A stretch of 64,000 bases of DNA from Dipteris shenzhenensis (taxonomy: Eukaryota): the NCBI GenBank assembly GCA_047967505.1, contig CM106538.1. The stretch is one strand, 5' to 3'. Position numbers and translations under genes: made by a program. The notes under the pieces were generated by a model that was given only the letters and a program-made list of their open reading frames with translations, was not told where the DNA came from and ran no database searches. Positions 9,678-64,000 of the stretch are shown here, in pieces; the stretch's first letter is position 1; the number at the start of each line of letters is the position of its first letter.

Positions 9678-9737
<60 letters not shown>

Positions 9738-9754: not shown

Positions 9755-9788
<34 letters not shown>

Positions 9789-9817
9789 GGAGGGGGAGGT
9801 AAGAGAGAGGGAGAGGG

Positions 9818-9873
<56 letters not shown>

Positions 9874-9902
9874 GAGGGAAAGAGAGAGAGAGAGAGGGGG
9901 GG

Positions 9903-9988
<86 letters not shown>

Positions 9989-10035
9989 GGTATAGTAGAG
10001 AGAGGGGGAGAAAAGAGAGAGAAAGAGGGGGGGGG
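9600..10035. repeat. Compound (GA)n/polypurine microsatellite
   Basis: About 430 bp of almost pure purine on the + strand. Confidence 0.97.
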
Positions 10036-34198: not shown

Positions 34199-34454
34199 TA
34201 TCGGGGGAATGCACCACTTAGAAACCCTATGTATCATGTGTGTTCAAGGGATATTAAAAAAACCCTTATCTACAATATTTCCCCCAATAAACCCACCCCT
34301 CTTTACTTATGAACTAATGGATTTTTTTCAAAATTGCAATTTAAAATCCCTCTTGGTATTGTAATCCTGTTAATTTTTTTTTGAAACTTGAATTAAAATA
34401 CCCCTCCTTTTAAATGCACATGGTACACTAAAATTTTGTGAGTGAACCCCTTGA
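34199..34454. mobile_element. MITE with degenerate TIRs
   Basis: Flanking direct repeat GTAGATGC(T) at 34191 and 34455; ends TCGGGGGAATGCAC / GTGAACCCCTTGA; AT-rich interior. Confidence 0.7.
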
Positions 34455-36103
34455 GTAGATGCTTGGGTGACACAAGCAGCTAGTTTGTGCACACGAAGCT
34501 CTCAAAAGGAGTTGTTTGAGAGAAGAGACTTTGATGGCATTCCCCCAGGATCCCCATGACATGTGAGTCACCATCGACTTCACATTTTTTGGTGCTATTG
34601 TCGGGGAGTCCAAGGTATGTTTCCTTATTGCATAGGCTTTCTATCATTATTCTCTCATTTCAAAATTCTTCTAGCTTATCTAGAGGTGTTCTTAGTGGAG
34701 AATAAGCTGGTTTTTCAGGAGAAAAGTGTGAGTTATGGAGTAGGAAAAGTAGAAACTACCACTTCTATCCATAGAGTATAACATTTGAGCTTATTTTTTT
34801 ATGTTTTTTTTTGTCACATTGTAGGAATAGCTAGTAGGGATGATTGCAAAAGTGTGTGTGGTGTCACATCTCACTTATAAACACTAAAGGGAAGTAGCAA
34901 GCTAAGGGTGTCCACTTTTTGTTCACTCCCCAATCCTTAGGAGGTGGAAAAACAAGCTTTTTAGCACACAAAAATGCAAATCTCACCTACTTCCCTATGG
35001 ATCTAGTCTTTGAAGTCTTCTGACACAACATCACACTTGCTATTGTGCACACAATCGTATAGTCTGATCGAAAATTTGATGCACACACAAAAAATTTCTT
35101 TGTGTCACACGGCATGGTTCCAGGGTGGTCACATGTTTGTCACGAACAGAGAGTGTCATATTAAATTCTAAATTTCTCACTCATTTTAGATTAAATGTTA
35201 TTGAAACTTTGTAAGTGGTCTCTTTGCATTATGTAGAGCTTAACTTGATTTATTGGTAATTTTTTGAATGATTTATCTAATTATAAATAATTATTTATAA
35301 TAAATAAAGTCATAAAATACATGCATTTTAGTAGCACACCACATTTTTTAAGTATTTTGAATAATTAAGCAAATCCAATTCGATGGAAGGCTAGTAGGCA
35401 CATAAGGGTGTGTGGTTGAATCATCAAATCCCAAATCCAACGGTTAGATTTAGGAAGATTGAAGTTTAATTTTTACTTTTACTCCTTAGGGGATCAATAA
35501 AGAATATTAAAAATAAATCTAGTAATTCTCAAACATAACCAAACATTTAAAAAATGTCAATATTTTTAGTCCTCTGCATGATGAATAAGAGGAAAAAATT
35601 TTGGTTAAATTTGAGTAAGGGAAACATACGATATGCCCTCCAACAATTAAATCTCCCTTTTGTGGGGGAAAAAGGGCCACCCAAGCCTAATACCAAGACA
35701 AGGTAAGCTTGGTATTAGGCTTGGTGAGGTAGGTTAGGAGCATCACCGACCCTAGTGGCAAGCCTTTGGAGTCTGCATGCTGCCCATGTGGAAGGCTGAG
35801 TCATCAAAACCATGCCACGTTGTTAGACCACATGGTGCCATCTCATCAAGGAGATGTGACATCACTCCTTGCCATGTCACCTTACATTGCCACACGTGCT
35901 GCCACATGTGCCACCTCATCATTCCACATCATGAGCCATGTGATCACACAATGCCACCTTGGCATACCTCCTCAACCTTGCCACATCACCAATCCCTCCA
36001 CCTCAATTTGCCATGTCAATCTACCACCTCATGAATGCCAACTCATCATGCCACATCACCTTTCAATGTCATGGAAGAGACTATATTACCACATCATGAC
36101 CAT

Positions 36104-36349
36104 CTCAGGGGGGTCACTCATCATATGTAACCCTATCACGTGAGTTCAACAGAAGGATATTTTTTATTTCTAAAATTTACAGAAATAAATATACATAAGG
36201 GACTATTTAAAATATTTTTGAGAAAAATTTACAGATTTGTATAGAAAAGGGGTAGATTTTATTAATGAAAAATTTAGAGATAAGGGATTTTAGAAATAGG
36301 CCTTGAACGCAGGTGGTATAGAGGGTTTAAACATAGTGACCCCCCCGAG
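36104..36349. mobile_element. MITE nested in the Sola2-like element
   Basis: TIRs CTCAGGGGGGTCACT / AGTGACCCCCCCGAG; perfect 8-bp TSD ATGACCAT at 36096-36103 and 36350-36357. Confidence 0.9.
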
Positions 36350-36410
36350 ATGACCATGCATGGTGCCACACCAGCTAGATGTATACACATGACGATGTGC
36401 GAGGCATACA

Positions 36411-36602
36411 ATACCTCGATCGAGGTATATGACCTGGGTGAGGCATACAATACCTCGATCGAGGTATATGACCGAGGACACCTAGGGATACCTCGATCGA
36501 GGTTTATACATGCGTAATGCACTGAATACCTCGATCGAGGTATATGGTCTGATCGAGGTATATGATCGGGGCTCTGGGCATAGCAGACCTCGATCGAGGT
36601 CT
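36411..36602. repeat. Left array of 18-bp palindrome ATACCTCGATCGAGGTAT
   Basis: Copies at 36411, 36450, 36488, 36526 and 36585 plus a partial copy at ~36551. Confidence 0.92.
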
Positions 36603-36833
36603 TTAAAGGTACAAAACTTAGCCAATTAGTATCAATCTTAGCACCAAAACTTAGCCAATTAGTTTCAATCTTAGCACCTCTCCACCAATAATAATGAAGA
36701 GCAATCTAAGAGCAATCTAGTGGATGAGTTGAGGCTCTCTATAAGACACCACGTTTTGGTTCATTTCACCCATTCTTAGCCATTCTTGCCTCCTCATCAC
36801 TTTGTCACACCTTCCATCCTACTTTCATTGAGA

Positions 36834-39686
36834 ATGGGTTCTCAAAGCCGTAGAGCTAGTAGACGTGAAAGATGTAGGAACCCCCCCCCAAATCTCATTG
36901 ACGAGGAGCGCAAGCGGAAGGCTCGTGAGTGCAAGAGAGCCTCTCGAGCTCGAGCTCGCGCTGCCACCACTGATCCACCTCCAGCTCTACCTCTACATCC
37001 CACCTCCACCCCCACCTCCACCCCCACCCCCACCTCCATTGTCCCCCCATCCTCATCTGCTCCCCTACCTCTAGCCTTTGCCCTTCCCCTAGCCACCTAC
37101 ATTTTGGCCTCCACCTCTACCTCTTCCCCGTCCACCCTCCCCCCTCCCCCTCCCCCTCCCCCTCCCCCTCCCCCCGCTCCGCTTGGCGCCTCCCTTCCCC
37201 CGTCCACCCTACCATCTCCCATTGATCCCCTTGCCCCACCTTGCAGCAGCAGTGTTGCTTCACGACGTGACTTGCCGAAGTCCACTATCCGTCGTCGTAC
37301 TAGCAAGATTGTGCAGTCTTTTTTTTGTGACCTCACGCCAGCTTCACAGTCTTCTCTTCTCACATCCCTAATTGATCACCCTGACTTGGTAGAGTGTAGG
37401 AGGCTTGTTGGTCTTGGTGCACATAGAGATAGGGTTGTATCTAGCGAGGTCCTTAGCAGTGTTTGACGTACCTATGCTTCTATTAAGCATAGGAACTCCA
37501 GTGATGTCTTGGCAGCACATCGTGCACATTGCGAGCAGGCATCATTAGGAGGCAAAGTCTAGAGGATAGTGAGACTGATGCTCTTTGGGCTTCGAGTGGT
37601 CGTGCACCTCGCAGCGATCGATTGTTGGATGATTCCACTAGGTCCATACAACAGTTTTGGGAGGAGCATTGCAGAGCATCCCCGGTGTTCAAGAAGGCAT
37701 TGTGGAAGAGGGTGTCACGCGGTGTGTACATTGAGCATGGTGCATGTTTTTTGGAGTGTACCCAGACTGAGTTGTACACTCAGCTTGTAGAGGCGCACCC
37801 GGAGTTCAAGATTGGGCAGAGGTCATCTGAGCGATGTAGGCCATGGTTTGTGTGATGCTCTCAGGAGCGTGACACATGCTGTTGTCGCCACCATGTGGAT
37901 TTTGGATTGATGTATGACATATTCCGTTCCCTTGATGGTCATAGGGGAGTGGTTCCTACTAGCCCTCGCGACTTCATTCATTCCATATTGTGTACACGAG
38001 ATGGTGATGCTTTATTCCACTCCCTTGATTGTGTGGAAGGCACGTGTACTTTGTGTGGTGACTTTGCTAGAGTGCCATGAGTTGCACTAGATACTTGTGA
38101 TGTGCAGATGGTTCATTGGCAGTAGTATGAGTACTGTACCTTGACATTAGATGGTGGTGCACAGTCGAGGAGGTTGCAGCTTGTGGGGAAGGAGACACCA
38201 CGTGTTGTATTCATTGATAGTTTTCGAGGGAAGTTGTACTGCTACATACACCACTCGCACAGTGCGAAATGGGAGGATCGTCAGTTTCGTGCATGTTTGA
38301 GGACATTTCCTACAGGGGTGGTTGTCTCAGTGGTGGACTTTGCGGAGAATTACACCTTTGCACCATAGCATGAGATCCAATCGGAGTATTATTTCTCCGA
38401 ACAGGTGACGTGTGATTGAGTATTGATTTTTTCCCCGCCTCATTATATTGAATTATTTCAATAGTCATATTTTTTTTCAATGCCATATTGCAGGTTGCTA
38501 TATTTGTGCACATTAGCTATCGTCATGCACAGGCTCATGTGGATGGCATTGATAGCACCATGGACTCACGCGTCATTGTGCAAGAGTATCACTTCTACAT
38601 TAGTGATGATCGATCGCATGATGCCCATTTTGTGCAGCATTGCTTCACTTTGCATGATAGTTTCTTGAGGGATCATGGTGTCACATGGCAGCGTCACTGG
38701 ATCTGGTCAGACGGTTGCGGTGGTCAGTTCAAATCCGCTAGACAGTTTTATTGGTTCTGCAAATGGCACCGTGAGACAGGCATTCCGATTACATGGAGCT
38801 ACTTCGAGACAGGGCACGGTAAGGGAGAGCACGATGGTGCAGGTGCTTGCGTAAAGCATGTTTTGCATCGATACCAGTTGTGTCATAGTGCCGATCGCTT
38901 CAAGGATGCACATGATGTGGTGCAGCCAGCACTTATCCATGAGTGCTACCTCCTCGTTTCAGTCGCGTGACGATAGGGTGGTGAGCCGGTATTTTTGGTG
39001 CGTGGACATTGGGAGTCTTGATCGGTCTAGGCCTTTTGATTGTTGTTTTGTGCCTGGCACTCTTGATTTCCATTCCATCAGGAGCGTAGGTGAGTCTCAC
39101 CCCGCGATCTTTTCTCGACGGTTTGCATGTTTTTGCTCTGCATGCATTGATGATGATTGGGGAGGGTGCTCCATGATACCATGGGCCGATCCATGGGTAT
39201 GGTGAGTGCTTTCTCCCTTCTAGACTTGGGAGGAGGTACATATGATGATCAGGATGCGGGATTCAGTTCCTCTAGAGATTATGACCAGCTTACAGATATT
39301 TTGCGTATTGGTGATATTTCGCGGTTATTGCTTCGGAGGGCAATGAGGAGGGTGTGGATTATTACTTGTTGCGATGCTCTATGCTGAAGAGTGTGTTGAA
39401 TGAGGATACAGTGGATGGGCATGGGATGCACTTCAATGCTCATAGCATGATCGTAGGTGGCCACTATTTTCAGCAGATACAGAGGCGTGGTTGCTATATT
39501 GAGTTCCAGGAGTACATGGCGGATCAGGAGGCATACATGTATTCTCATCTTGTTGTTGGGATCAAGATTACTTTGAGTCGTGTTCGCACTCGCAAGGCGA
39601 CGTCCACTCCACGATGGCGCCTTGCAGTGGCAGATCACGAGAGCATACTTGCAACTATTGGCATGAGAGCTGATCCTGAGGAGTAG
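36834..39686 (+). pseudogene. Sola2-like DDD transposase pseudogene with one spliceosomal intron (38405-38493)
   Basis: Basic/Pro-rich N-terminus; ELY..HPEFKIG..RPWFV; Cys motifs; VVDFAENY, WSDGCGGQFK, GHGKGEHDGAG; GT..AG intron joins YFSEQ|VAIFVH in phase 0; several stops and frameshifts. Confidence 0.85.
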
Positions 39687-40009
39687 CACATTACATATCA
39701 TATTTTTTGGGATCATCAGTTGATCAGATTGATTTTTATTGGGTATCACTGGTTGATTACACTTTTTTGTATTTGATATGTATAGGCTCACTGTGTGACC
39801 GTACCATTGTAATTTTCATGGACTCATATTTTGTATTTCACTATGATGGCTGTATACACGTTCATACACATCATTGTATTAGATTCTATTTTTTACATGA
39901 TGTCCGATGTCTTCTCAATGGGATTTGTTGTGTTTGTAAAACAAAAAATTATTTATTAGTAGTAATGTTGTAATTTGTTTTGTGCTTTAGGACATTTTAA
40001 AAACGTGAC

Positions 40010-43000
40010 TAAGAAAATTCGTGCACGTACTAACGAAATACGCGTGTGGACTTGTTGGGGATGAAACTTCGCACGACTCTTAGGCCACCCTAGACATACA
40101 TCCACACGAGATTTGGTCTGAACTGATTTGGTATGCGCCACGTGGAAGGTACAATGCGTACATTTTTACAATCCCTACTAGCACGACTGTGGCAAAGCTA
40201 TGGCGCATGTACTAACGAAATACGCATGTGGACTTATCTGTTGGGAATGAAACTTTGCAAGACTCTTAGGCCACCCTAGACATACATCCACGCAAGATCT
40301 GGTCTCCAACTTATTTGGTATGCGCCACGTGGAAGGTATAATGCGTACATTTTTATAATCCCTACTAGTACGACTACGTGTGAAAAATGGTGCACGTACT
40401 AACCAAATATGCATGTGGACTTATCTGTTGGAGATTAAACTTTGCACGGCTCTTAGGCTACCATAGACGTACATTCACGCAAGATTTGGTGCCCAACTGA
40501 TTCGGTATGCGCCACGTAGAAGGACAGCTGCGTACATTTTTACAATCCCTACTAGCATGACTACGTATGAAAAATGGCACACATACTAATGAAATATGCA
40601 CGTGGACTTATCTGTTGGGGATGAAACTTCACATGGATCTTAGGCTATCCTGGACGTACATCCACACAAGATTTGGTCTCCAACTGATCTGGTATGCGCC
40701 ACGTGGAAGGACAAATGCGTACATTTTTACAATCCCTACTAGCACGACTACGTGTGAAAAATGGCACACGTACTAACGAAATATGCATGTGGACTTATCT
40801 GTTGGAGATTAAACTTTGCACGGCTCTTAGGCTGTCGTAGAAGTACATCCACGCAAGATTTGGTCTCCAACTGATTTGGTATGCGCCACGTGGAAGGATA
40901 GTCACATATATTTTTACAATCCCTACTAGCACGACTATGTATGAAAAATGGCGCACGTACTAATGAAATACGCACGTGGACTTATCTGTTGGGGACGAAA
41001 CTTCACATGTCTCTTAGGCTACTTTAGACGTACATCCACGCAAGATTTGGTCTCCAACTGATTTGGTATGTGCCACGTGGAAGGACAAATGTGTACATTT
41101 TTACAATCCCTACTAGCACGACTACATGTGAAAAATGGCGCACGTACTAACGAAATATGCATGTGGACTTATCTGTTGGAGATTAAACATTGCACGGCTC
41201 TTAGGCTGCTGTAGACGTACATCCACGCAAGATTTGGTCTCGAACTGATTTGGTATGCACCACGTGGAAGGATAGTTGCGTACATTTTTACAATCCCTAC
41301 TAGCACGACTACGTATGAAAAATGGCGCACATACTAATGAAATATGCACGTGGACTTATCTGTTGGGGACGAAACTTCACACGCCTCTTAGGCTACCCTA
41401 GACGTACATCCATGCAAGATTTGGTCTCCAACTGATTTGGTATGCAGCACATGGAAGGACAAATGCGTACATTTTTACAATCCCTACTAGCACGACTACG
41501 TGTGAAAAATGGCGCACGTACTAACGAAATATGCATGTGGACTTATCTGTTGGAGATTAAACTTTGCACGGCTCTTAGGCTACCGTAGACATACATCCAC
41601 GCAAGATTTGGTCTCCAACTGATTTGGTATGCACCACGTGGAAGGGCAGCTGCGTAGATTTTTACAATCCCTACAAGCATGACTACGTATGAAAAATGGC
41701 ACACGTACTAATGAAATACGCACGTGGACTTATCTGTTGGGGACAAAACTTCACACACCTCTTAGGCTACCCTAGATGTACATCCACGCAAGATTTGGTC
41801 TCCAACTGATTTGGTATGCACCACGTGGAAGGACAAATGCGTATATTTTTATAATCCCTACTAGCACGACTACGTGTGAAAAATGGCGCACGTACTAACG
41901 AAATATGCATGTGGACTTAGCTATTGGAGATTAAACTTTGCACGGCTCTTAGGCTGCCGTAGATGTAAATCCATGCAAGATTTGGTCTCCAACTAATTTG
42001 GTATGCGCCACGTGGAAGGACAGCTGCGTACATTTTTACAATCCCTACTAGCATGACTACGTATGAAAAATGGCGCACATACTAATGAAATACGCACGTG
42101 GGCTTATCTGTTGGGGACGAAACTTCACACGCCTCTTAGGCTACCCTAGACCTACATCCACGCAAGATTTGGTCTCCAACTGATTTGGTATGCACCACGT
42201 GGAAGGACAAATGCATACATTTTTACAATCCCTATTAGCACGACTAAACCCTAAACCCTAAATCCTGAACCCTAAATCCTAAACCCTGTTCGGGATAAAA
42301 CTTCACACGCCTCTTAGGCTCCTAGACGTACATCCACGCAAGATTTGGTCTCCAACTGATTTGGTATGCGCCACGTGGAAGGACAAATGCATACATTTTT
42401 ACAATCCCTACTAGCACGACTACGTGTGAAAAATGGCGCACGTACTAACGAAATATGCATGTGGACTTATCTGTTGGAGATTAAACTTTGCACGGCTCTT
42501 AGGCTGCTGTAGACGTACATCCACGCAAGATTTGGTCTCCAACTGATTTGGTATGCGCCACGTGGAAGGACAGTTGCGTACATTTTTACAATCCCTACTA
42601 GCACGACTGCGTATGAAAAATGGCGCACGTACTAATGAAATACGGACGTGGACTTATTTGTTGGGGACAAAACTTCACACGCCTCTTAGGCTACCATAGA
42701 CGTACATCCACGCAAGATTTGGTCTCCAACTGATTTGGTATGTGCCATGTGGAAGGACAAATGCGTACATTTTTACAATCCCTACTAGCACGACTAAACC
42801 CTAAACCCTGAACCCTAAATCCTAAACCCTGTTGGGGACGAAACTTCACACGCCTCTTAGGCTACCCTAGATGTACATCCATGCAAGATTTGGTCTCCAA
42901 CTGATTTGGTTTGTGCCACGTAGAAGCAATCCCTACTAGCACGACTAAACCCTAAACCCTAAACCCTAAACCCTAAATCTTGAACCCTAAATCCTAAACC

Positions 43001-43475
43001 CTGTTGGGGACGAAACTTCACACGCCTCTTAGGCTACCCTAGACATACATCCACACAAGATTTGGTCTCCAACTGATTTGGTATGCGCCACGTGGAAGGT
43101 ATAATGCGTACATTTTTACAATCCCTACTAGCATGACTAAACCCTAAACCCTAAACCCTGAACCCTAAATCCTAAACCCTGTTGGGGACGAAACTTCACA
43201 CGCCTCTTAGGCTACCCTAGACGTACATCCACGCAAGATTTGGTCTCCAACTGATTTGGTATGCGCTACATGGAAGGTATAATGCGTACATTTTTATAAT
43301 CCCTACTAGCACGACTAAACCCTAAACCCTAAACCTTGAACCCTAAATCCTAAACCCTGTTGGGGATGAAACTTCACATGGCCCTTAGGCTACCCTAGAC
43401 GTACATCCACGCAAGATTTGGTCTCCAACTGATCTGGTTTGTGCCACGTGGAAGGTATAATGCATACATTTTTGC
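40010..43475. repeat. Satellite array: ~19 monomers of 187 bp, alternating A/B variants, five monomers carrying (CCCTAAA)n tracts
   Basis: CTAGCACGACT-type anchor at 40178, 40365, 40552, 40739 and onward (187-bp period); telomeric tracts at ~42245, ~42795, ~42945, ~43138 and ~43316. Confidence 0.95.
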
Positions 43476-43480
43476 AAGCA

Positions 43481-43830
43481 CCTTTTCAATGCTTAATGTT
43501 TACAATTACGACACACGGCATTATTTTTAAAATACATTATGTATTAGATGTGTGAATTGAGATATCTGAAATTCAAAATCATACTCTTAATTTTAAATAC
43601 GCACATGGGGATGAAACTTCGCACGGCTCTTAGGTTTAGTGTAATAATTGCAAGCATTGATATATACGAAATTCAATATGATATTCAAAATGATAAAGTT
43701 GGAACTTGAACACTTTTTCAATGCTTAATGTTTACAATTACTTCACATGGCATTCTTTTTTAAATACCTTATGTATTAGATGTGTGAATTGAGATATTCG
43801 AAATTCAAAATCATACTCCTAATTTTAAAT
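43481..43830. repeat. Direct duplication of about 120 bp
   Basis: TTTTCAATGCTTAATGTTTACAATTAC...AATTTTAAAT at ~43482 and ~43714. Confidence 0.8.
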
Positions 43831-44021
43831 GTTTATGTTACATTTAAACAAACTATAAACTGAGATAAACAAAGTGTGAAGAACATCATGAAAGTACGAA
43901 AATGCTCATACATCATAAAAGTGGGAACAATATCATGAAAGTACCAAAATGAATCTGTACATCATCATCATCATGCTGCAGAAGTGCATCCCTATACAAG
44001 AAACGTGTGAAGCCTAAACAA

Positions 44022-45957
44022 TCAATCTGAATCCGAATCTGATAGCTCTACATATGATCCTCTAGTGGAACGCTGACGTGGCTCCTGTATGACCCATTGC
44101 CCAACCGTCCGCTGTGTGCCCTCAGGCAAAGCCGGCTCAGATGGGCCAGCCTCATCACCTACATGGAATGGGCCAGCCTCATCCTGATGAAGAGGAGGGC
44201 ATGCTGCACGCACCACCGCTGGCATCTCTGCCTCCCTCGCCTCCTTTATGTATGCGCGTCTTAGCTCCCATAGCCGTGCATCTGCGAATACTCGTGCCTC
44301 AAATCTAGCGTGAGTAATCGTCTCTACATGTAGAAGACGCTAGTCTCAACCCCGCCCTAGCTGCTGCTCCACCCACTGCTGCAATGATGTTTGCAGCTCT
44401 GCCTCTCGCTCAATCCGGCGTGCCTCCTCTGCTCGTGCCTCGTCACCTGGCATGAAATCACCATACGAAAAGCGTCATGGAACGCATGCTACAACCACAA
44501 TGTATCAGCACCCTCCTGCATCAGCAACGCTCTCTGTGCCTCCTCCCTGTAGTGCTCTGTCAAGACTACGCGGGCGAATGGATCAATGGCTTGACGATGA
44601 CCAGGATATAGATCATCCATGCCTAGTCCTCTGTATGTGGCCACATCAATGTCAGCAAAGCATACAGGGCACACTGATCGTGCCACCATGTGGCGGGTCA
44701 TGCAATGGAGATGTGCGATGTAGCCGCACCCTAGTCCAACGCACCCTAGTCCAAACCACCCTACGGTGTCAAACTCCTCGTGGCAAAGGACGCAAGTGGC
44801 AGTAGGAAGCCTGGCTATGACTGCTGCATCTATGGGTGTCCTAGTCAGCACATCTACAGGAGGAGCGGGGTATAGGGCCACGCTAGGGTCGATCCTATGG
44901 CAAGATGGATCACGACTAATATGCCTCATCTGCAAAATATAGTGCTCTACACGATGGTATGCTATGCATGTTCGAATCCTCTGCTCCTCCAAATCTGTCT
45001 GCAACAGTCGTATGCGAGACTCCATCTCCTGACGCAATAGATGTGCCTGCAATACAAACATGTCACGTACATGGTGAGAATTAACCAAAAAACTTCAGTT
45101 CAAAACACGCTACAAAAAAATAAACTAACATAATCAAAATAACTAACCTCGTCCCTAGACTCGGCCAACAATGCCTCCAACTCTGCAATCCGTGTGTCTC
45201 GAGCCTCCAACTCGTGCTGAGGCAGTGTATATTGGGAGGTGGTGTAGATGTGGGAGGCTCCATCGATGATCGAGGTGGGGGAGGTGGAATCGCAATAGAT
45301 CTCGATAGGGCAGAGACCATGTGCTGCAAGGATGATGCCACTGAATGAACATCCCCCCTAATCTGTCCTCCCACCACTCGCAATGCCGGTGCAGGGATGG
45401 TGTGCAACTCTCGTGCCTTGCGTCGATGCCAACACCTGCAATCTGACGCTCCTGACGCCCCATCCTACCATGTCCTGCTCCTGGACGGGTACTAAGGTAG
45501 TCCACCCGATGACTAAGCACAAACTTAGTGTATAGCTGCATGGCAAACGACTTGGCTATCTGACGGTTGTGAGGCAATGGACCACCATTCGCAGCGAGAT
45601 ATCTCGGATAAATGTGTGATGCTATGATGGGGTGCCTACAACGTAAAATATGCAAGGGGAGCCCTGATCGTGGTCGCATCGCCTCGGTGTGACCATCCCA
45701 AAACATATCCTCTAAGGCCTGCCTGTGATGATGCGACTCATGCTCAAACAACTGTCGAATGGCTCTCCAATCCAAGCCACCACCTCAACCTGTGCATGAA
45801 AGCTATCCACAACGTCCTCAACTGTCTCCAATCGACCCAGAGCCTCAATAACTGAATCTAGACTCGCAACCAAGTGAGGGGGTGCCCTAGCATCCTGCAG
45901 TGCCCTCATCTTAGCTCTCAGCATCTCTATCTGCATACGAATAGTGGTGCTAGAACC
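44022..45957 (-). pseudogene. Transposon-borne multi-exon gene for a coiled-coil + RING-finger protein, disrupted; probable first exon near 48488-48620
   Basis: CVLC...CGYIAHLHC...CPVC RING-like motif (44489-45046); GT..AG intron 45147-45047 joins ALLAESRDE|AHLLRQEMESR in phase 0; acidic end SYVELSDSDSD* at 44022; stops and frameshifts. Confidence 0.7.
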
Positions 45958-46899
45958 TGTGCGCTGGCTGGTGCATGCACAAAAAAAACACATGGAAATT
46001 AATATTCTATTTGGGTAATGAAAATAATATTCTATTCAATATGACTTATAATCTATTTACATAATGAAAACTATTTGTATGTACTCCTTGATGAGGTAGG
46101 ATGTCGTTGGGATCATCGTATGCACCTACTGGTAGATGGGCCAAATGTGTGGCTCAATATTAATCAATATTATTAAAAATTCTTAATTTTGATTAGAATT
46201 TTTTCAAACTCTAGTTGTTGCATTTTAAAACTTAGATGTCTCAAATATTTTTTCCTTATATGTTTCCCTTTTTTCACTTTTTATCCAATATGAAACTTTT
46301 CCACATGTGGTGTAAGGACCACATTGTCCACTTATGGCCCCTATACTAAGGACAGATAGTGGAGAGGTTTGGTTAATAAGACCTTCTTTGAATGCTTTAC
46401 TGCCTTGGGTTTGCAATAGATATGGAGGAGATAGAAGGATACCTAATACATTACTTTGAACGATACACAAGCAAGGTGCATCTAGTATTTCTCGGACTAC
46501 ACATTAAAAAAGAGAGCGGGTTCACACTACAGACCTTTTAAAGCGAGAACTTTGAGAAAATAATTAAGCCTTTTCAATATTATCTATTTTGGTTGGGCAA
46601 TCCACCTCAACTAGTGGCCATTCCTATAGATCATCACTTGGTTCCCATGCTTGGGGAGAGAGGAGACCTTTGGACAATCATAAATTACATATGTGTTTTC
46701 GATGCGTTGGTGCATTTACAAGATCCAATTAGCCATATGCTTATGCATCTAATTACTCTAGTGTTGGGGTCTTTGCCCATGTGGTGTGGTGTTTTAGGGA
46801 TAATGCCCATGTGGTGTTTTATACAGCCTACTTACTCTACCTAAATTATGAAACAACTCTTAACCAACTATATAATCTATAATATTCCACATAAACGAT

Positions 46900-48480
46900 G
46901 ATTTTTTAAAAGATGGTTTTGAAGACTAAAATTTAAACGTTTTTTTATTTAAATAAAAATAGCACCAATTTTAAAAATAGCATAGAACCTACTTTAATCT
47001 CTCTTTTTCTTGTTTTCTTATTTTTAATACATGATTTTCTTATTTTAACAAAATTCTTATTTTCTTGTTCTTGATACATGATTTCTAAAAACAAAATTTA
47101 AACGTTATATTAAATTCAAAACTTCAGTAATTTGTAAACTTCACTTATAAATTTTTTTTAATAGATTATTTTAAAAAACAAATTATATACTTTTTGACAT
47201 TTAAATACAAACTTCACTAACTTAAACTCTTATTTTCTTTTTTTTAAAAGATCATTTTTAAAAATAAAATTTAAACGTTTTTTTATTTAAATATAAATAA
47301 CACTAATAAAAAAAATATCTTTAATCTCTTTTTTTTAAAAGATAATTTCAAAAAACAAAATATATACATTTTCAGGCTTTAAATAAAAAATTACGTAATT
47401 CCAAAAATAATTTAAAAAACTTTAAAATGCATTTCAAATTTAGAAATATTTTATAATTATTCCTATAAACTAAAATTTAAACGTTTCTTCATTTAAATAA
47501 AAATAGCACTAATTTAAAAAATAACTTTAATCTCTTTTCTTTAAAAGATGATTTTAAAAACAAAATATTTACATTTTCACATTTTAAATAAATAATTACG
47601 TAATTCCAAAAATGATTTAAAAAACTTTAAAATGCATTTCAATTTTAAAAATATTTTATAATTATTCCTACAAACTAAGATTTAAACGTTTTTTATTTCA
47701 ATAAAAATAGCTCTAATTTAAAAAAATAACTTTAATCTCTTTTTTTCCAAAGATGATTTTTAAAAACCTAATTTTTACATTTTCACATTTTAAATAAAAA
47801 TTTAAAATGCATTTGAAATTTGAAATATTTTATAATTATTCCTATGAACTAAAATTTAAACGTTTTTTTAAAAAATAACTTTAATCTCTTTTTTTTCAAA
47901 GATGATTTTAAAAAACAGAATTTTTACATTTTCACATTTTGAATTAAAAATGTCGTAATTCAAAAATTTAAAAAAAACTTTTAAATGCATTTCAAATTTA
48001 AAAATATTTTAGAATCATTCCTGTGAACTAAAATTTAAAAGTTTTTTTATTTAATTAAAAATAGCTCTAATTAAAAAAATAACTTTAATCTTTTTTTTTT
48101 TCAAAGATGATTTTAAAAAACAGAATTTTTATATTTTCACATTTTGAATAAAAAATGCCTCATTAAACGTTTTTTAAATTTAAAATTTTCACATTTTAAA
48201 TTATAAATGTCGTAATTCAAAAATTTAAAAAAAATTTACAAATGCATTTCAAATTTATAAATATTTTATAATTATTCCTATGAACGTTTTTTTATTTAAT
48301 AAAAATAGCTCTATTTTAAAGTTATTTTTTTCATTTTCACATTTTAAATAAAAAATGTCGTAATTCATAAATTTCAAAAAAACATTAAAATGCATTTGAA
48401 ATTTAGAAAATTTTTATAATTTTTCTTATAAACTAAAATTTAATTAAATTTTACCAAAAAGAAAATGCTACATTAAAAAA
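46900..48480. repeat. Very AT-rich degenerate tandem repeat, ~205-bp unit
   Basis: TAAAATTTAAACG-type anchor at ~47265, ~47471, ~47676, ~47850 and ~48028, with truncated units. Confidence 0.8.
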
Positions 48481-48631
48481 ACCCTACCTAGACTCTCCCG
48501 CTCCGTCCATCTCCGTCGATGTCCGTCGGTCGCTCTCCGTCGCTCGTGCAATTCCGTCGACGTCCTGCAAATCCGAAATCGGTGGATGAGGAGGAGCTCG
48601 ATTGAGGTATGCGGAATGAGGGGGGTCGCTC

Positions 48632-48657
48632 TCCTTTTATAAGAAAAATTAGGGTTT
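48632..48657 (-). promoter_or_regulatory. Putative promoter of the RING gene: telo-box AAACCCTA directly upstream of TATAAAA
   Basis: Minus strand reads GAGAAACCCTAATTTTTCTTATAAAAGG, then a GC-rich leader, ATG at 48510 and donor AG|GTAGGG at 48487. Confidence 0.5.
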
Positions 48658-48659
48658 CT

Positions 48660-49114
48660 CTACCTCGATCGAGGTATTCCGCATGCATGCCACAATACCT
48701 CGATCGAGGTATTGTGACATGCCCATACATCTCGGTACATCTACCTCGATCGAGGTATTTACATGCCATGATACCTCGATCGAGGTATGTCGGCAGCAGC
48801 CGGATGCCAAGTCATCGGTCCAGCATACCTCGATCGAGGTATGTCATCTGCCCTGTCGGCTGCCCTGTTGAATGGCACATACCTCGATCGAGGTATGCTG
48901 GACATGCCACCTTACCTCGATCGAGGTTGAGCTGGATTGCCAGGATACCTCGAACGAGGTAGATGTGGCATGTATAGGTGGCTTGCCAGCAAACCTCGAT
49001 CGAGGTAGAGGCTCGGTCCGGTGAAAAAAGCCCAGTACCTCGATCGAGGTATTGGCTTGGCTCGGTTGTCCTCGTGTGTGATTTTCATTGGAGCTAATAC
49101 CTCAATCGAGGTAT
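48660..49114. repeat. Right array of 18-bp palindrome ATACCTCGATCGAGGTAT
   Basis: About 11 copies with 30-62-bp spacing, ending ~70 bp inside the right TIR. Confidence 0.92.
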
Positions 49115-49446
49115 TGGAGACCGAAGCAAAACCTTTGTATTTTCACTCGAGCGGGTGTCACACTCACCCGAAAGTGGTCCAGAAGTGGACACCCTTAGCT
49201 TGCTACCACCCTAAAAATGTGTTTGAATTAGTGCAAGCTGACACACGAGTGAGTTCTCAGTCACCACCTTCAAAACTCCTCTGTTTGATCTTTTGAGTAG
49301 TTGTTTTTTGTGTTTTTTTGGTTTGAGTAGGATCAAATGGTGTTCTATGTTCTTCCACAAGTAATGCATATGTGGAAGTGTGTATGAAAGTGGTCAATTC
49401 TAAACATTAAATTGTGTTCTTTGTTTCGCTAAAAGCAATGGTCATT

Positions 49447-49447
49447 T

Positions 49448-49495
<48 letters not shown>

Positions 49496-49682
49496 AGAGA
49501 GAGAGAGAGAGAGAGAATAGGAAAGGGATGGGGGGATTGGAGAGAGGGAGAGGGAGAGGGAGAGATGGAGAGACAAGGGATAAGACACAGATGGGGGAGG
49601 GGACAAATAGGAAGGGGGTAAGAGAGAGAGAGAGAGAGAGAGAGAGATATGGGGGGAGGGAGGGAGGGAGGGAGGGAGGGAA
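49447..49682. repeat. (GA)n / (GGGA)n microsatellite cluster
   Basis: Direct reading; another (GA)n tract at ~49962-49998. Confidence 0.95.
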
Positions 49683-49958
49683 GCACTCACCATTTTTGTG
49701 CATGCTTGCCAAAAGATGCTAGCCAAAAAACATCCCCCCTTCCTTAGAGTTTTTAAATATTGGAACTGTGAGGCACATGCAATTTATGAATTCAAGGGTT
49801 TTGTCTTTCATACTCATATGTTAGTATATATACATTCTAGCATGTAGCTATCACTTTCTACGAAGCCCCAATGGCTAGGGAATATTATTCCCATTCATTT
49901 GGTTGGGGCTATGGAATCCCTTGTCATGAGATTTTAGATGTACATTTTTTGGACTAGG

Positions 49959-50000
<42 letters not shown>

Positions 50001-50755
50001 GGGTAAAAGCAAATTAAAAAATAGTTAAGCAAAGAATTTAAAAATAAACATGTTAAAAGTCATACTAATCAACTTTAAATGCTTGCTTGGTAACAACAAA
50101 ACCACTAAGGGCCTTTTCCACTATTAATTAAAAAGTATTGTTAAGGATTTTAACAAAAGGGTGCATTTCAATTCAAATTTAAGGGGATCGAGTTATGTTA
50201 AATCTCTTGACTGCATGTTAAAGATGCTTCAAAAGTTAACCCTTAGAAAAGGTAGTTGAAATATAGAAAATAAGTGTTTCACTTAAGTGTGGTGGGTAGC
50301 AGGAATGCTACTTTATTGAAGAGCTTCGTTAGGTATTTTTAATGGTCGTGTGTAAATCGAAACTATATAATATGGGTACTTGATTGAAAGCCCTTGAAAA
50401 GAAGAAGCCGTGAGTGTAAGCTTTGAGAATGACTATCATAGTGTAAAGATATGCCATTTTGTGTGGAAAAGATCCAAATTTCCTTGTTATGACAACTTTA
50501 TGAATAATACAACAGGAATTGATGGAAATGGAAGTGTGTTGTTAACTTTAATGTAACTTGAATATAACTTGGAGTAATATAGGCACTATGGCAAAACTAC
50601 ATAATCGTGGTCCCAAAACCCAAAAGGTAGGTATAAAGCCAAAACTCTCGACGAGGCGGGACAAGCTAAGCTTTAGAAAGGCTTCTACACACAACCAGGT
50701 CTTACTTATGGAAGGACCACCTCTAGCATATCTTGTACATACTGAAGCGTCCACT

Positions 50756-51381
50756 TCATGCGCTGTACTCGTTGTGTTTCAGCAAGTAAGCCTCGACTGC
50801 CTTTATGGACTTGATGAAGCCTTCCGTAATACGATCAGGAATCTTCTGCTGGTCAGTAACGGTTTCGTATATAATAGTCCAATGCACCACACAAGTATTT
50901 GCATGGGCTCCTTCGATTTCAATCTTGGATTTCATAGTCTTGAAAGTGGTACCCAACAAGCCCCCTTCCACCACAACAGTCGTGTACTTCAATGACTCCT
51001 GATCCACTTCTTCTACCTTCTCTTTCACGTAGAGCACGCCCTCCGCTTCACTATGAGCTGTGGCCAACCATCGAATGACAATGGTGCAGGATTAGTATAT
51101 TGAAAGGAGCGTCCGATGTAAAACGACAACAGTATGCAAAGGCTAGCAATACGAAAGAAAACAGAATGCCTTCAGAAGGCATGCACAGATGACCCACCCT
51201 TATTGAACTTCATGGTTCTCACACAGCCGACCTCTGTTGCCTGGCCTTCTGTGTATTCTACAGCAGCAATTTTGTAAGACAAGGCCTTGGGGAGGCAGTT
51301 ATGGGCATCCTTAACAAGGCCGCACCACATCCTCTTGGCGGAAACCTGCACTTCGATCTCTTGGCTGAAGACCTTTGCCAT
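50756..51381 (-). CDS. Bet v 1 / PR-10 / major latex protein-like gene, 2 exons (51381-51198, 51057-50756), 161 aa
   Basis: Spliced ORF MAKVFSQEIEVQVSAKRMW...EGQATEVGCVRTMKFNK|AHSEAEGVLYVKEKVEEVD...KYTTVVVEGGLLG...KAVEAYLLKHNEYSA*; 140-bp GT..AG phase-1 intron in codon 62, the usual position for this family. Confidence 0.93.
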
Positions 51382-53545: not shown

Positions 53546-55050
53546 GAACAAGTAGAGATGAATTTAAGGAAGTACAAACTCATAATGTGAGATGAAAGAT
53601 TTAGAATAAAGTGATTGAAGTGAAAGACTCCAGAATAAAGTGAGTTGAAGATTTGAAAAGAAGTGAGAGGCTCAGATGTCACTATGATGATGGTTGGAGA
53701 ATGCTCTACTAGATTGTGTGAAGTAATAGATACAAGACCATAACGTGAGACATGTGAGATGATAGATTTTGAATACATTGAAATCTATGAAATAAAGTGA
53801 TCAAAGCCAAGAATGATATAATTATTAGATTCTTATCATGATATATTTATTATATATAATAAATTGGACTTCCAATAAAGTGAAACCAATTAAATAAATT
53901 GAGAGCAGATGAGTTGTCTATGATGGTAAGAGAATGGTCTAGCTTCTAGGTATAAAGTGGGAGGATGATATTTGCTATGATGAAGTTAGGAAAATGCTCT
54001 ACTAGATAGTGTGAGGTAACAAGTGCAAGACTGTAATGTGAGACATCAAATTTTGAATAAAGTCAAATCTATGAAATAAAGTGATCGAATTAATATAATT
54101 ATTACATTCTTACCATGAGAGTCCATTTAATGTATATAATAAATTGAACTAAAAGATGTTTTTATTTCCATCATCACACATTTATATGTATCCATGTTAA
54201 CTTCCCCTTATGTATCCATGAGTAAATGAAGCTGATAAATTCACACATTTAATATAATCAACCACAATAACATTATGATCCAACAAATAAATACAAAGTT
54301 AAGATATTGCAACTATAGATATCCAAGACGACAGTCCCTCGAGTCACCTATTGAAAAGGTCAGCTATTGTATCCAAGCCATTTGGACTGTATATTGGGGT
54401 GTGTAGAGCACAGCACAGAGCTGTTGTATCGAAGCCATTTAGGCTAAGTAATTTATGGGATATTTATATGTCTGTATGTTGATTTTATATGGCTCATTTT
54501 GATTTTATATGTCTAGCTTTATATGATTCACTATGATTTTTGATGGTCCATTATGATTGTATGTTTATATGTTTATTATGGTTCATAATGCTCATATGTT
54601 TATTTCAAATCTGATTATGATCTACTTAAATCTATTCAGGTTTGTTTAAATCTATGTTTTCTTTGATTTAAATTTGCTCAAAATTGTTTAAATCTTATTT
54701 AAACATGTATTTCAAATCTGTCCAGATATAATTATACCAGACAATCTGTGCAGATATAATTATACCAGACAATATGGTCCTTGATTCATTACACGTGGAA
54801 GAGACAAAAGCAGAATTGTAGTTGTCCATCCATGTCAATAGCAATCTTGAAAAGAATGAATTCCCAAAATCAATCACTAGCTGGCGAAAGAGGCAGTAGA
54901 GGAGGGAAGCAACAAAATGGGATCGAATTTATAGGTGGCATTTGGACATATTAGAAACAGTGGAGGCAAATGGATCATCCTCAACTCTTGTGCCTACCTC
55001 CACACCCACCAAAAGTGGTACCAACACCTCTCCATAAAGAATGAAGAGCT

Positions 55051-55704
55051 ATGATCTTAGACTTGAATGGCCTTCTAGTAAAGGTTGTTGAGTCATATCA
55101 TGGAGATATACCCCCACCTTATGAAAACCTAATGGAAAAACATAAAGAGTCCAAGGGACGGACCATGTTTATTCGTAGAGATGCTATTGCCTTCTTGGAA
55201 TTTTGTGTGTCATGGTTTGAAGTGTTTATTTGGAGCACATCTAGAAGAAAAAAAGTAAACAAAATCCTCCGTGCATGCTTTCCACAACATTTTGAAAAGA
55301 TAACAATTCTGGATCAGGAAGCTTGCTATAGTGTTGGACTCATGGTGGTGAACAGAAATGGAGAGTTGTTGAATGAGAAGCCTGTCATCTTCAAGCACTT
55401 TCCAACCATTTGGAACCATTTCACACACTTGTCGGCAACCAACAATATTATTTTGGATGACTCCTTATACAAGATTTGTAGAAACCCATCTGGAACATGG
55501 AGAGTACTTCCAAAGTTTGAGATGCAAGGTCTTGAAGAAATGTGCTCCCATTTGATGGATGATGTCGCACTGTGGCTATATGTCTAGCTTCAAATGGAGG
55601 ATCGGCAATCCTACACATCACCTAAGCATGACATGTTCCATGATACGGAATACATTGACATTTTGGAGTATATGGTCAAATACAGTTGCTGGACTGAGTT
55701 ATGA
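55051..55704 (+). pseudogene. Intronless FCP1/NIF-homology (HAD phosphatase-like) domain ORF, probably pseudogene
   Basis: ILDLNGLLV, FLEFCVSWFEVFIWST, DQEAC, KPVIFK, IILDDSLYK..NP; TAG at 55585 with the frame staying open to TGA at 55704; stops immediately upstream. Confidence 0.7.
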
Positions 55705-56824: not shown

Positions 56825-59800
56825 TGTTGAGATATCGAGCTCCACTCATGATATGCCAGGGTGACCATTGTGCATTTATGTCACTGACTTGTTAGCTGCA
56901 GATGCAGTTGGTACACCACCCATGAATAATAGCTGGATGACATCTATCTTTATGTACTCTAATTAGTGGCTCAATTAGTATGCCACCTTAGTTAGCTGAG
57001 TTTGGTTTGAGACACACATATGGGGTTCACCTATTCTTTCATACAGAGAGAGTTCTTTTGGCTTTCAAAACTAAGAAGAGAAAAACTGTTTTCAACCTCC
57101 ACCTTTGTGTATATTCCCCCATTGTGTATGTGAGAAAGCTGCAAGTGAGACTCCTTCTTCTCTCTCACTCTCTTCACATGGTATCAGAGCTCGGTTTGTG
57201 GTAAGGAGCTCAAGAAAGCAAACCAAGTTCGCGGTGTCCTAGTAAGAGGATCAGTGTTGCTTTCCTTTTTTTTTTCGAGTTTGGGAGCAAATCTCTACAG
57301 GTAGCACAGCTGGAAAGTGCAAGAGTGCACTGTCTCAGATTGGGACGCCCTTTGCGGTGTGGCGAGAGGGTAGTATATGCTGTGGGATAAGGCAAAGCCC
57401 TTGGTTACATTACTTTTTGGATTCGAGTCCATTTCAGGCCCATTTTGGTGGCGGAAGTTCTACACAGGCACTCAGAAAACTGCCCTCTTTTTGCTCTGCA
57501 GCCACTGTTCTGTAGGTCAGTGAAAAGTTATCAGAGAAATTACATCGTATGCATGTGCGCAGAGATATTAGGAGTGACAAAATCATTCTGATTGCCTGTT
57601 GATGCATAATCGTCACTAGGAAGTGACTGTGTGGTCAAATACCACTTTTGTCAGTTTTGTAGATTTGCCCTTGTGAGGCAAAAGTTGTGTTTTTTTGTAG
57701 TGACAGAATATTTGCAGTGTTCTGTAATGGCGTTTGATGCTCTTTCACAGATTGTCACTGAAAATCTTGACAAGAACAACTTCCAAGCATGGAAGTTTAG
57801 AATGACGAATTTCCTTAAGGGAAAAGGCTATTGGGAGTTCATTACTGGAGCAGAACAAGAACTAGTTATTCCTAATGTTCCTAATCAACAGGAGTTGCAG
57901 GCATTCAAAGGATAGCATGAGAGAGCTAGAAAAGTTATGTACTGGTTGTCTATCAGTATTTCAGATTCTATGATTGTGCATATTCAGGATGCAAGCACGC
58001 CGAAGGAGTCGTGGGATATTTTGACAAAAATGTATAGCACAAATACACAAGCCAGGAAAATGTAGCTCAAGCAAGAGTTGCATAATGTGCAGAGAGAAAA
58101 TAAGAGCATCAATGACTACCACATGAACGTGAAGAATATTACAGATGCACTTGCTTCTATTGGGTCACCAGTGGAAGATGATGATTTAGTTTCTATGAAC
58201 TTGAATGGTCTAGGAAAGGATTATGCACAATTCTGGACATCCATTGCCGTCCGTGAGAATTTTTCTGATTTTGAGGAGTTGATTGCTCTTCTTATTTATG
58301 AAGAGCAAAGAAATTGTGGTGCATCTTCTTCAGGAGGAACTTCAAAAGAAGTTGTCTTCTACTCAAATGCTGGAAGAGGTAGAGGCAGAGGTAGAGTAGG
58401 CTAATTCGGAGGCCGTAGCAGAAATCAGAATATGCAGCAAATTCAAGAAAACCAGTCCTATGGAGGAGGACGTGGTAACTTTAGAGGCAAGGGGAGCCAA
58501 AGAGGTCGTGGTGGATGGCATAGAGGCCAAAATGCAAACACCAATGTTGAATGCTACTACAATGCTAAAATGGGTCATATGGTTAAAGACTACTATAAAA
58601 AGCAGAATGACATCATGACTAGAAAATTGTAGCAAGGCAATTATGCATCCTCTAGTAGACAGGGTGATGACAGAAATGAACATCTGTTTATGGTGTAGCA
58701 CATGACCAATTTTGTGACAAGTGCAAAAGAAAGCAATGATGTGTGGTATGTTGACTCAAGTGTGTCAAACCACATGATAGGTCATGTAGAATGGATGCAC
58801 GATGCAAGGAAAATGGAAAGACCAGGATTTGTGAAGACTGGTGATGATACTGCACATCCTATTGTGCAGATTGGTAAAATTTCTTTGTATATGGAGGATG
58901 GAAAAAAGAAATACCTATCTGATGTATTTCATGTCCCAAATATCACCAAGAATGTGGTTTCTGTTGGTCAAATGGTTGAGGAGGGCTTGTAGGTCAGATT
59001 TTATCCTCATGGATGCTTTGTTGAGGATATGAAAAATAAAGGTCGCTTGATAGCAAAAGGGAAGAAGAAGGGCAAGATGTTTACGTTGGATGCAGACATG
59101 CCTAAATTGAGTGCAGCAATATTTGCACATGGGACCGGTGTAGTTGCACATATTGATATCTGGCATAAATGCATTGGTCATGTTAATGTACAACGACTTA
59201 AATTAATGCAGGCCCAAAATATTGTTGTAGGATTGCCTAAGTTCAAGGTTGCAAAAATGCATAAGATATGTGAATCCTGTCAATTTGGAAAACAGGCAAG
59301 AAAACCATTTCCTAGACATGTTCAAGAGAGTAAGAGGCCATTGGAATTGATCCACTCTGATGTGTGGACTACTAAAGTTGCATCTATTGGAGCTGTCATT
59401 ATTTTGTCACTTTTACTGATGACTATAGCAAAAAAGTTTGGGTGTATTTTATGAAAAAGAAAAGTGAAGTGTTTGGGCATTTCAAAGCTTTTAAAGCTAT
59501 GGTTGAAAAAGAAACAGGCCTGCAAATAAAATGCCTAAGGTTAGATGGAGGGGGAGAGTACCTTTCAAATGAGTTTACAAGTTTTCTACAGGAGCATGGC
59601 ATAAAGCAACAATATTCATGTAGTCATACCCCACAGCTAAATGGACTTGCAGAAAGGAAAAACAGGCATATTGGAGTGGTATCTCGTGTCATGCTCAACA
59701 AAAAAAGCTTGCCATATTATTATTGGGCTGAAGCAGTTGCTACAGTAGTCTACATAATGAACAAGACTCCCATTGTAGTAATACATTGCATGATGCCAGA

Positions 59801-63284: not shown

Positions 63285-64000
63285 CGTGTCGTTGCTGCTT
63301 ATCATCTGAAATGAAGAAGTGAACAATTTTAAAAAAATTTTCCACCTTATGGTAGTAAGTTATATGAACAAAAATTAAGACCTATACACTGAATGCCAGT
63401 GCATTTATTGAATCTCATTCTATTCTTTGAAAGCATAATTTTTTGCAAAGTCTACAACTGACACAACCATATCATCAGGGAATTTGAGAATACATTCCTT
63501 GAATTGAGGAGCTTGCCATCGGGCTATGTAGTTGTGTTGATAAAGTGCTTCATTTTTACTTTTCAAGAACTGCAAAAACTCCCAATATTGCATGTCTTTG
63601 TTCACAAGATCTTTCCTCTTCTTCTTATTTCCATGCTTTCTACAGTATCCACATATTCAAATACTTTCATAGTGATAGTTTTTCCTTCCTTCATTGTCTC
63701 TAAGGGGCAGCAAGCCAACTTCTTTATGCCACAATCCTTGCATTCACCCATTAAACACTTCCTATGATGGAAGGTTGCATCATTATGTGTTGGAAAAATA
63801 AATAATTCCCACAAATGAGCAACACCTTTGTAAGTGTGCAAAGTAGATGAACATATGTTGCTTGTGTCATCACTAGTACAGACAATGCATTTGCATTGAC
63901 ATTTCAAATGAATGCCAAACTTTTTATTGAGCATCACATTCAACTCATCTTTCAAAAAGGACATCTATACATGGTATTCATATCAAGCTGTCCTTTAACT
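63285..64000 (-). pseudogene. Second Sola2-like transposase fragment (divergent family), running off the window
   Basis: CLMGECKDCG, HNYIARWQAPQFKECI, VVSVVDFAKNYAFKE*NEIQ, VLIFVHITY, VHFFISDD; collinear with the 38000-38610 region. Confidence 0.8.

Follow-up and report, generated by a model that had tools for sequence, protein, structure and literature searches.

Accessory genes are the means by which transposons handle their hosts, and few of them are understood. Those known from plants are mainly TnpA, PIF ORF1, MURB, and VANC; PIF/Harbinger ORF1 is a Myb-like second protein, and En/Spm, the source of TnpA, has subterminal repeat arrays. Here we describe a candidate of another kind, a minus-strand gene called ORF2 at positions 48657-44022 of a 64,000-nucleotide stretch of DNA from Dipteris shenzhenensis (contig CM106538.1 of assembly GCA_047967505.1; this whole stretch is referred to as the window). 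We regard it as probable, if well short of certain, that 44022-48657 holds a decayed copy of the second gene of a 14.3-kb cut-and-paste transposon, and that the intact form of this gene would most likely act as a RING E3 ubiquitin ligase.

TnpA of En/Spm (CACTA) resembles ORF2 in being the second, accessory protein of a cut-and-paste element and has been modelled as binding both DNA and the transposase (PMC13547354). However, TnpA and PIF/Harbinger ORF1 have DNA-binding domains and no RING. VANC comes from the VANDAL (Mutator-like) elements of Arabidopsis and is likewise an accessory protein encoded beside the transposase of a plant DNA transposon with repeated short noncoding motifs (PMC5735166; PMC10398659). 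It differs from ORF2 in belonging with another transposase superfamily and in being a sequence-specific DNA-binding anti-silencing factor, for which the relevant passages of these sources mention neither a RING nor a ligase; the two proteins are compared here by description only (PMC5735166; PMC10398659). A RING within a transposase lineage is found in RAG1 and RAG1-like proteins (Transib-derived cores), where both dimerization and E3 ligase activity have been reported (PMC1131882). There, however, the RING is part of the transposase-derived protein itself and the setting is animal, whereas ORF2 is a separate gene of a plant element with another transposase fold subtype. Herpesvirus RING proteins of the ICP0 type destroy host restriction factors. 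Such viral RING E3s are comparable to ORF2 in that a genetic parasite carries a RING of its own, and the ORF2 family profile matches the RING of equine herpesvirus 1 (EHV-1; 1chc) at E 0.0028, although they belong to viruses and not to transposons, are of the C3HC4 type where ORF2 is RING-H2, and share no common architecture with ORF2. The nearest likeness of the finger itself is to the RING-H2 E3s Arkadia/RNF165, RLIM, RNF38, and HRD1, which have the same C3H2C3 ligand pattern and spacing and, like ORF2, a hydrophobic residue at the second position past the first Cys (C1+2). This likeness is limited to ~50-65 residues, the helix Trp is not conserved in ORF2, and ORF2 is transposon-borne. Open-access full texts yielded no account of a plant DNA transposon with a stand-alone RING-H2 accessory gene, and the words "RING" and "ligase" have no occurrence in the main text of a 2026 atlas of Arabidopsis transposon products.

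With the 185-residue exon as query, a full HMMER search of 1.84 billion representative sequences returned 22 proteins at E<=0.001, seven of them at <=1e-10. A profile search returned 14 (four shared with the 22); these 14 all derive from Logan or ENA assemblies, with none from an annotated genome. Ten clusters of the family were checked, nine of which had a single member and one two members. By these sequence comparisons the last exon of ORF2 defines a rare protein family. Its longer members (364-437 residues) have in common a coiled coil, the finger with a conserved block on each side, a C-terminal region that is helical, and an acidic Ser/Asp tail, the last of which is also present in the window's last open reading frame (ORF). 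The original prediction had pointed to a RING-like Cys/His motif and had made its worth depend on whether the ligands are conserved in the family; all eight RING-H2 ligands, in the arrangement C-x2-C-x13-C-x-H-x2-H-x2-C-x10-C-x2-C, are kept in the 15 of 15 members that span the finger, as well as in the deep-contig form of the gene described below. Against the Pfam model zf-RING_2 (PF13639; cut-off 27.3 bits), members P0068 and P0047 pass at 34.2 and 35.6 bits, whereas the truncated ORF2 of a metagenomic locus, L032, scores 24.1 bits and the window's own 185-codon ORF (45046-44489) scores 21.1 bits (E 3.7e-4), both below the cut-off. The family profile matched 57 RING E3 chains among solved structures at E<=0.01, with Arkadia best (4.3e-8), in each case over the finger only.

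Structure prediction gave the same answer for this part of the protein. An AlphaFold model of P0068 had a mean predicted local distance difference test score (pLDDT) of 64 and a predicted template modelling score (pTM) of 0.33; its helix at residues 2-93 (92 residues) has a block-mean pLDDT of ~90 over residues 11-70, and its finger has block means of 68-84. The top Foldseek rows for this model were all RING E3s, among them RNF165 (template modelling score, TM, 0.85; root-mean-square deviation, rmsd, 1.7 over 51 residues) and RNF38. Their E-values were 0.027 or weaker, with none at E<=0.001, because the finger is a small part of the model. The structure and profile comparisons proposed at the outset are thus in agreement on a canonical RING-H2. 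Many RING E3s contact the ubiquitin-conjugating enzyme (E2) through a hydrophobic residue at C1+2, a helix Trp, a Pro after C7, and an Arg after C8. In the ORF2 family the hydrophobic residue is present in 16/16 sequences, the Pro in 10/18, and the Arg in no more than 12/18, the last being a point that counts against the ligase reading; the Trp is taken up below. Outside the finger, that is, in the N-terminal region, the long helix, and the C-terminal region, no solved or Pfam relative of ORF2 was found, and a protein language-model comparison of the N-terminal region gave a best score of 0.77 and no lead. A word-based search ("longer" setting) with the RING exon returned nothing, while a metagenome contig scan with a RING alignment matched 115 pattern stretches and no relative. 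A scan of viral contigs gave 25 loci which were set aside as generic RINGs, since they cover the bare finger only (P0045 residues ~81-194, most ~95-170) and lie mostly in giant-virus bins.

In the window the gene can be followed along the minus strand from a putative first exon and promoter (48657-48488) with a telo-box AAACCCTAA at 48657-48649, TATAAAA at 48641-48635, and an ATG at 48510-48508, the assignment resting on motif presence. The exon would end at a GT donor at 48487. The TATA box and telo-box that ORF2 had been credited with are therefore where they were said to be. Putative intron 1 (48487-45968; 22% GC, with tandem repeats of 86-205 bp) is predicted to join in frame from GT 48487 to AG 45969-45968, and a Met at 45993 offers an alternative start. 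The core of this intron (46900-48480) has 15% GC and tandem repeats of 86-91 and 205 bp, and its depth in contigs of X1, a DNA run from the same organism, is the same as over the coding part. Exon 2 (45967-45148) carries the N-terminal region and the start of the coiled coil, with four frameshifts and its coding signal spread over three reading frames. It is followed by putative intron 2 (45147-45047; GT..AG, 101 nt, 30% GC as against 53-54% in the exons beside it, 50% T), which is in frame (phase 0) in the window copy, and by a broken last exon (45046-44022) with the end of the coiled coil, the RING-H2 finger (~44794-44660), the conserved C-terminal region, and the acidic tail. The exons have 53-59% GC as against 30% for the short intron and 22% for the long one, a contrast that supports the exon/intron reading. 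The alternative that the 101-nt segment is decayed coding sequence was rejected in view of its base composition and the stops that it carries; moreover, with the segment excised the product stays colinear with the ORF2 of L032, which has no intron. The coding signal is far beyond chance: a hidden Markov model (HMM) of the family matches the 185-codon ORF at E 1.8e-47 and the tail ORF (44339-44022), which corresponds to the C-terminal end of relatives, at E 5e-12, and tblastn places P0068 on the last exon in two pieces in different frames.

The original prediction described a spliced minus-strand gene, and while all the features that it named are in place, the gene is not intact. Its frame changes four times upstream of intron 2 and once more at ~44499, and a premature stop at 44491-44489 is followed by others near 44478 and at 44348-44340. 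The finger retains seven of its eight ligands, with His4 replaced by Tyr (44722), and a 15-bp tandem duplication (44725-44739) adds five residues within it. The window's ORF2 is a pseudogene copy, and the transposase of the element is likewise dead.

A better-preserved form of the gene could be read from X1, whose contigs over 43900-48475 have a mean word depth of ~280-480. One 2865-nt contig covering 43900-46259 differs from the window by 74 substitutions and 45 gap letters, the gaps forming nine indels, and supplies bases missing from the window's ORF2 at 45782 (13 nt), 45430 (1), 45232 (1), 45159 (2), and 44499 (1). The deep-contig form considered here is the window with all nine indels and the 40 substitutions listed up to 45224 applied. 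Thirty-six of these 40 substitutions are transitions and in 31 the contig has G/C where the window has A/T, which looks like the pattern expected from decay of the window copy by cytosine deamination. The first four insertions (+13, +1, +1, and +2 nt) bring exon 2 into one open frame, with 304 codons open upstream, and the last exon then reads through 337 codons to a terminal stop only, whereas in the window as it stands the first stop comes after 185 codons. From the Met at 45993 the predicted two-exon product is 627 residues long, has a canonical RING with all eight ligands, and matches the family HMM at 1.7e-70. The phase-0 intron within the coiled coil fares less simply: GT..AG at 45147-45047 is in frame in the window, as had been proposed, but the upstream frame of the deep-contig form joins the last exon in frame only through a GT at 45143, 4 nt inside the 45147 donor.

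That ORF2 belongs with the transposase is indicated by a second locus. A metagenome scan with an alignment of the transposase turned up 296 relatives, and the 80 best (L001-L080) were analysed. When the family HMM was run on all six-frame ORFs of these loci and of the window, only L032 (E 2.8e-51) and the window matched. In L032 a transposase at 632-3483, 39% identical to the homologue P0001, is followed after 225 nt and on the same strand by an ORF2 (3709-4917) of at least 403 open codons that runs off the contig; its N-terminus is basic, and it includes a coiled-coil-like stretch and a complete RING-H2. The deep-contig ORF2 aligns with it from the N-terminal region through the finger (E 1.8e-16; 289 columns, 27% identity), with a 1-residue gap at the exon joint and a 13-residue gap six residues later, and the window's own N-terminal frame gives a local match to its N-terminal region (E 6e-5). 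With the transposases at 39% and the ORF2s at 27% identity and the two genes nevertheless paired, the link is likely to be old and inherited, which argues against a chance neighbour or a recent capture. As far as these sequences go, ORF2 travels with the transposase, and the linkage is seen in two instances, the window and L032. The suggestion that ORF2 is a resident second gene rather than random captured DNA is borne out by the presence in L032 of the same kind of ORF2 beside the same kind of transposase; the co-occurrence that it implied holds for the window and L032 but not for the other 79 of the 80 loci, 51 of which extend 1 kb or more beyond the transposase on one side. Further tblastn matches to the RING in L066, L068, and L076 (E 3.5e-5 to 2e-3) and in L080 were discarded as unsupported by the family HMM at E 0.1. 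A tree of the transposases was built without L032 and L031 (core split by intron) and is silent on whether the RING-bearing elements form a clade.

Both genes, ORF2 (48657-44022) and the transposase (36836-39686), lie between the terminal inverted repeats (TIRs) of a cut-and-paste DNA transposon of 14,323 bp (34889-49211), defined in this one copy by its TIRs and a 4-bp target-site duplication (TSD). The left TIR (34889-34927) begins with GGG and the right TIR (49173-49211) ends with CCC; 27 of the 30 outermost nucleotides, and 33 of 39, are the reverse complement of the other end, and the identical TAAA stands beside both (34885-34888 and 49212-49215). In the whole window the 22-nt TIR core occurs at the two end sites only. 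Two X1 contigs match the window to 49212 and then continue into unlike sequence, as expected for the edge of a repeat. Inside the TIRs are arrays of the 14-bp palindrome ACCTCGATCGAGGT, with five copies on the left (36413-36600) and 11 on the right (48662-49112), so that the array upstream of ORF2 does mirror the transposase side as had been noted. The window contains 16 copies with at most one mismatch as against 0 expected, and all 16 are confined to the two arrays. One X1 contig passes directly from 48714 to 49182 and so lacks 467 nt of the right array, and another has unrelated letters between 49115 and 48661, differences which imply that the arrays vary in length among copies. The layout would thus be symmetric, with each end made up of a short TIR, then a palindrome array, and then a promoter-like region that would drive an inward gene. 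The left gene is the DDE transposase and the right gene ORF2, and both converge on an internal satellite (40023-43477) of 187/374-bp units with blocks of plant telomere-type heptamers. The units are repeated ~9-19 times, and 11 of the 14 matches of AAACCCTAA in the window fall within it at 42246-43332. The spacer between the left TIR and the left array (34928-36412), in which a 24-nt inverted pair occurs (36095-36118 and 36335-36358), may be the site of a nested insertion.

On the plus strand, the partner gene (36836-39686) is a pseudogene with a DDE/RNase H-like core, as judged by tblastn with P0001, by its homologues, and by a model of the core of a relative. Aligned with the 942-residue P0001 it falls into five pieces covering residues 79-919 in frames 3/2/1/2/3 with six in-frame stops, and the frame changes and stops mean that the gene is broken in the window. 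The 158-residue core exon has 44 homologues at E<=0.001 (P0001-P0044) and is 66% identical to P0001; those with a name belong to gymnosperms, ferns, and mosses (Taxus, Cryptomeria, Ceratodon, and Adiantum). Across 30 aligned sequences the motif GKG..DGAG and the D of SDGC do not vary, and the D of DFAENY hardly does; the catalytic residues are presumably among these conserved acidic ones. Pfam found no domain in six homologues at E 0.1 (including no rve), sequence comparison found no solved relative, and the motif words of the transposase were not found in any relevant paper. The predicted core of one relative (L014:2807-3730; pLDDT 83.8, pTM 0.83), however, matched the catalytic domain of Mos1 best among solved chains (Z 10.1, 168 residues, rmsd 3.3), followed by the integrases of prototype foamy virus, Rous sarcoma virus, and mouse mammary tumour virus (PFV, RSV, and MMTV; Z 9.8-9.9), Metnase (9.6), and IstA. 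All 20 of the chains listed with Z>=8 (ranks 1-20) are transposases or integrases, while Foldseek alone gave weak RNase H-like rows. The match of this core model to transposases and integrases indicates that the partner gene encodes a DDE-type transposase. A protein language-model comparison found a resemblance to clusters labelled arthropod and diatom, with DUF7869 as a lead (score 0.92).

To which described superfamily the element belongs was also considered. Sola, a superfamily with 4-bp TSDs, is a tentative candidate; the present element has a 4-bp TSD and its transposase no Pfam hit. Sola cores are stated to lack Pfam similarity (PMC5751038). GingerRoot is defined by a 6-bp TSD, TIRs of 100-150 bp ending in 5'-TA...TA-3', and a DDE domain like that of Ginger and Gypsy integrases (PMC6839031), and was rejected on the one copy compared, which has a 4-bp TSD, TIRs of ~30-39 bp, GGG...CCC termini, and no Pfam rve. 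For the purposes of annotation, the transposase and the ORF2 family should be treated as transposon genes and not as host genes.

Several observations weigh against ORF2 as a resident ligase gene, and most of them bear on one alternative or another. On the main functional rival, ORF2 would serve transposition as a cofactor, either architectural or DNA-binding, in the manner of TnpA or PIF/Harbinger ORF1; a coiled-coil dimer would read the palindromes and the RING would be a zinc-stabilised module for contact or dimerization. Palindromic sites suit a dimeric binder, the arrays lie directly upstream of both genes, and the P0068 model has its 92-residue helix. Of the E2-contact positions, the helix Trp is absent from all 16 sequences (0/16), and the RING of RAG1 is described as also serving dimerization (PMC1131882). 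However, the eight ligands are conserved in every member that spans the finger and the hydrophobic C1+2 residue in every sequence compared, the nearest solved relatives are all active E3s, Pfam found no DNA-binding domain in the ORF2 proteins, and most transposase loci manage without ORF2. We consider a cofactor of this sort improbable, though it is the strongest of the alternatives.

Less probable still is a host origin, in which the element would have transduplicated a gene of its host, whole or in part, and amplified it passively as ORF2, with no role for the element. Plant DNA transposons often carry gene fragments, GingerRoot being an example (PMC6839031), and the fusion of P0047 to a host-type KIX_2 domain indicates that the family recombines with host sequence. 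The distribution of ORF2 also favours this view, as it is present in one of the 80 transposase loci; flank of 1 kb or more is available on one side in 52 of the 80, with the gene present in L032 alone, and in L001, L004, L017, and L020, among them close relatives, no RING ORF2 follows the transposase within the 2.4-4.4 kb downstream. In L032 the two genes stand in tandem rather than convergent as in the window. It follows from the one-in-80 occurrence that ORF2 is lineage-specific and cannot be essential for the superfamily. On the other hand, what is present in the window is a whole gene, with a promoter-like region, introns, a start, and a stop, and not a fragment; the full-length-type ORF2 beside a transposase of 39% identity in L032, and the divergence of the two ORF2s, speak for an old link, and none of the 14 profile-search hits comes from an annotated genome. 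The fusion in P0047, a Logan contig of 1655 nt, places a Med15-like KIX_2 domain (86 bits) before the coiled coil and RING, and may be a host exon capture or a domesticated fusion.

The third alternative, that the RING gene is part of a different and more abundant repeat nested in the element, to which ORF2 could belong given an X1 depth of ~341 over 43900-48475 as against 3-10 over the palindrome and TIR contigs at 48606-49300 (a comparison that covers the ORF2 side, 43900-49300, only), is very improbable, since inverted-repeat and self-comparison searches of 34000-51000 found no second TIR or long terminal repeat (LTR) pair, the promoter-like region of ORF2 abuts the innermost palindrome of the right array, the same pairing of genes recurs in L032, and variable arrays that assemble as many shallow contigs can explain the drop in depth. 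Two further points stand against the reading of ORF2 as a resident gene of a symmetric element. The distance from TIR to array is 1.5 kb on the left and 60 nt on the right, which is asymmetric, and three RNA runs of the same species (~10-13 million records each) gave 0, 1, and 0 reads, which is too few to test expression or either intron.

If ORF2 is indeed a RING E3 ubiquitin ligase, its intact form would be a protein of ~627 residues with an element-specific N-terminal region, a long helix that is probably a coiled coil, the RING-H2, a C-terminal region, and an acidic tail. The N-terminal region is shared only with ORF2 of related elements, and the long helix of the model suggests that the protein would form a dimer. 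A host E2 would be brought in by the RING, and substrate choice would fall to the N- and C-terminal parts, which are element-specific. The substrate may be a host factor restricting the element, or else its transposase; the window copy is a fossil no longer capable of this role. Going by the conservation of the finger and by its modelled likeness to known E3s, we lean slightly towards ligase activity in intact members of the family. An anti-silencing role, for which VANC provides the analogy, is doubtful. A broader and tentative possibility is that a land-plant transposon lineage carries a stand-alone RING-H2 E3 that would mark for ubiquitination either its own transposase or a host protein of silencing, chromatin, or repair, that sister lineages carry a convergent NIF/FCP1-like (CTD-phosphatase-like) gene instead, and that the superfamily repeatedly recruits host-regulatory enzymes. 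With a transposon-borne RING-H2 protein, ubiquitination would join the short list of accessory functions of plant transposons, and ORF2 would be a concrete, testable candidate explanation of how host control was evaded or handled by an element whose read depth became very high in a large plant genome.

Elsewhere in the window, at the right edge, there is another and distinct element with a transposase of this superfamily, represented by transposase pieces on the minus strand (63408-63964; HMM positions 157-297). About 8 kb from these pieces, and pointing to them, is a plus-strand ORF (55045-55587) with a NIF/FCP1-like phosphatase domain (Pfam NIF 36.8 bits, cut-off 21.8). Minus-strand NIF ORFs close to the transposase and convergent with it are also found in L030 (3148-3663) and L031 (5322-6104); the former is 38% identical to the window's NIF ORF (E 3.5e-34) and the latter scores 27.1 bits. 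At the position of the catalytic DxDxT motif, the NIF ORFs of the window and L031 read DLNG. The NIF ORF looks like another lineage-specific convergent accessory gene. The window as a whole looks like part of a transposon-rich land-plant genome. It contains decayed retroelement ORFs with copia-like integrase, reverse transcriptase (RT), and RNase H at 70-1035, 19346-22023, and 58993-60761, an RT like that of long interspersed nuclear elements (LINEs) at 13963-15249, and long GA/CT microsatellites at 9560-10176 and 49407-49783.

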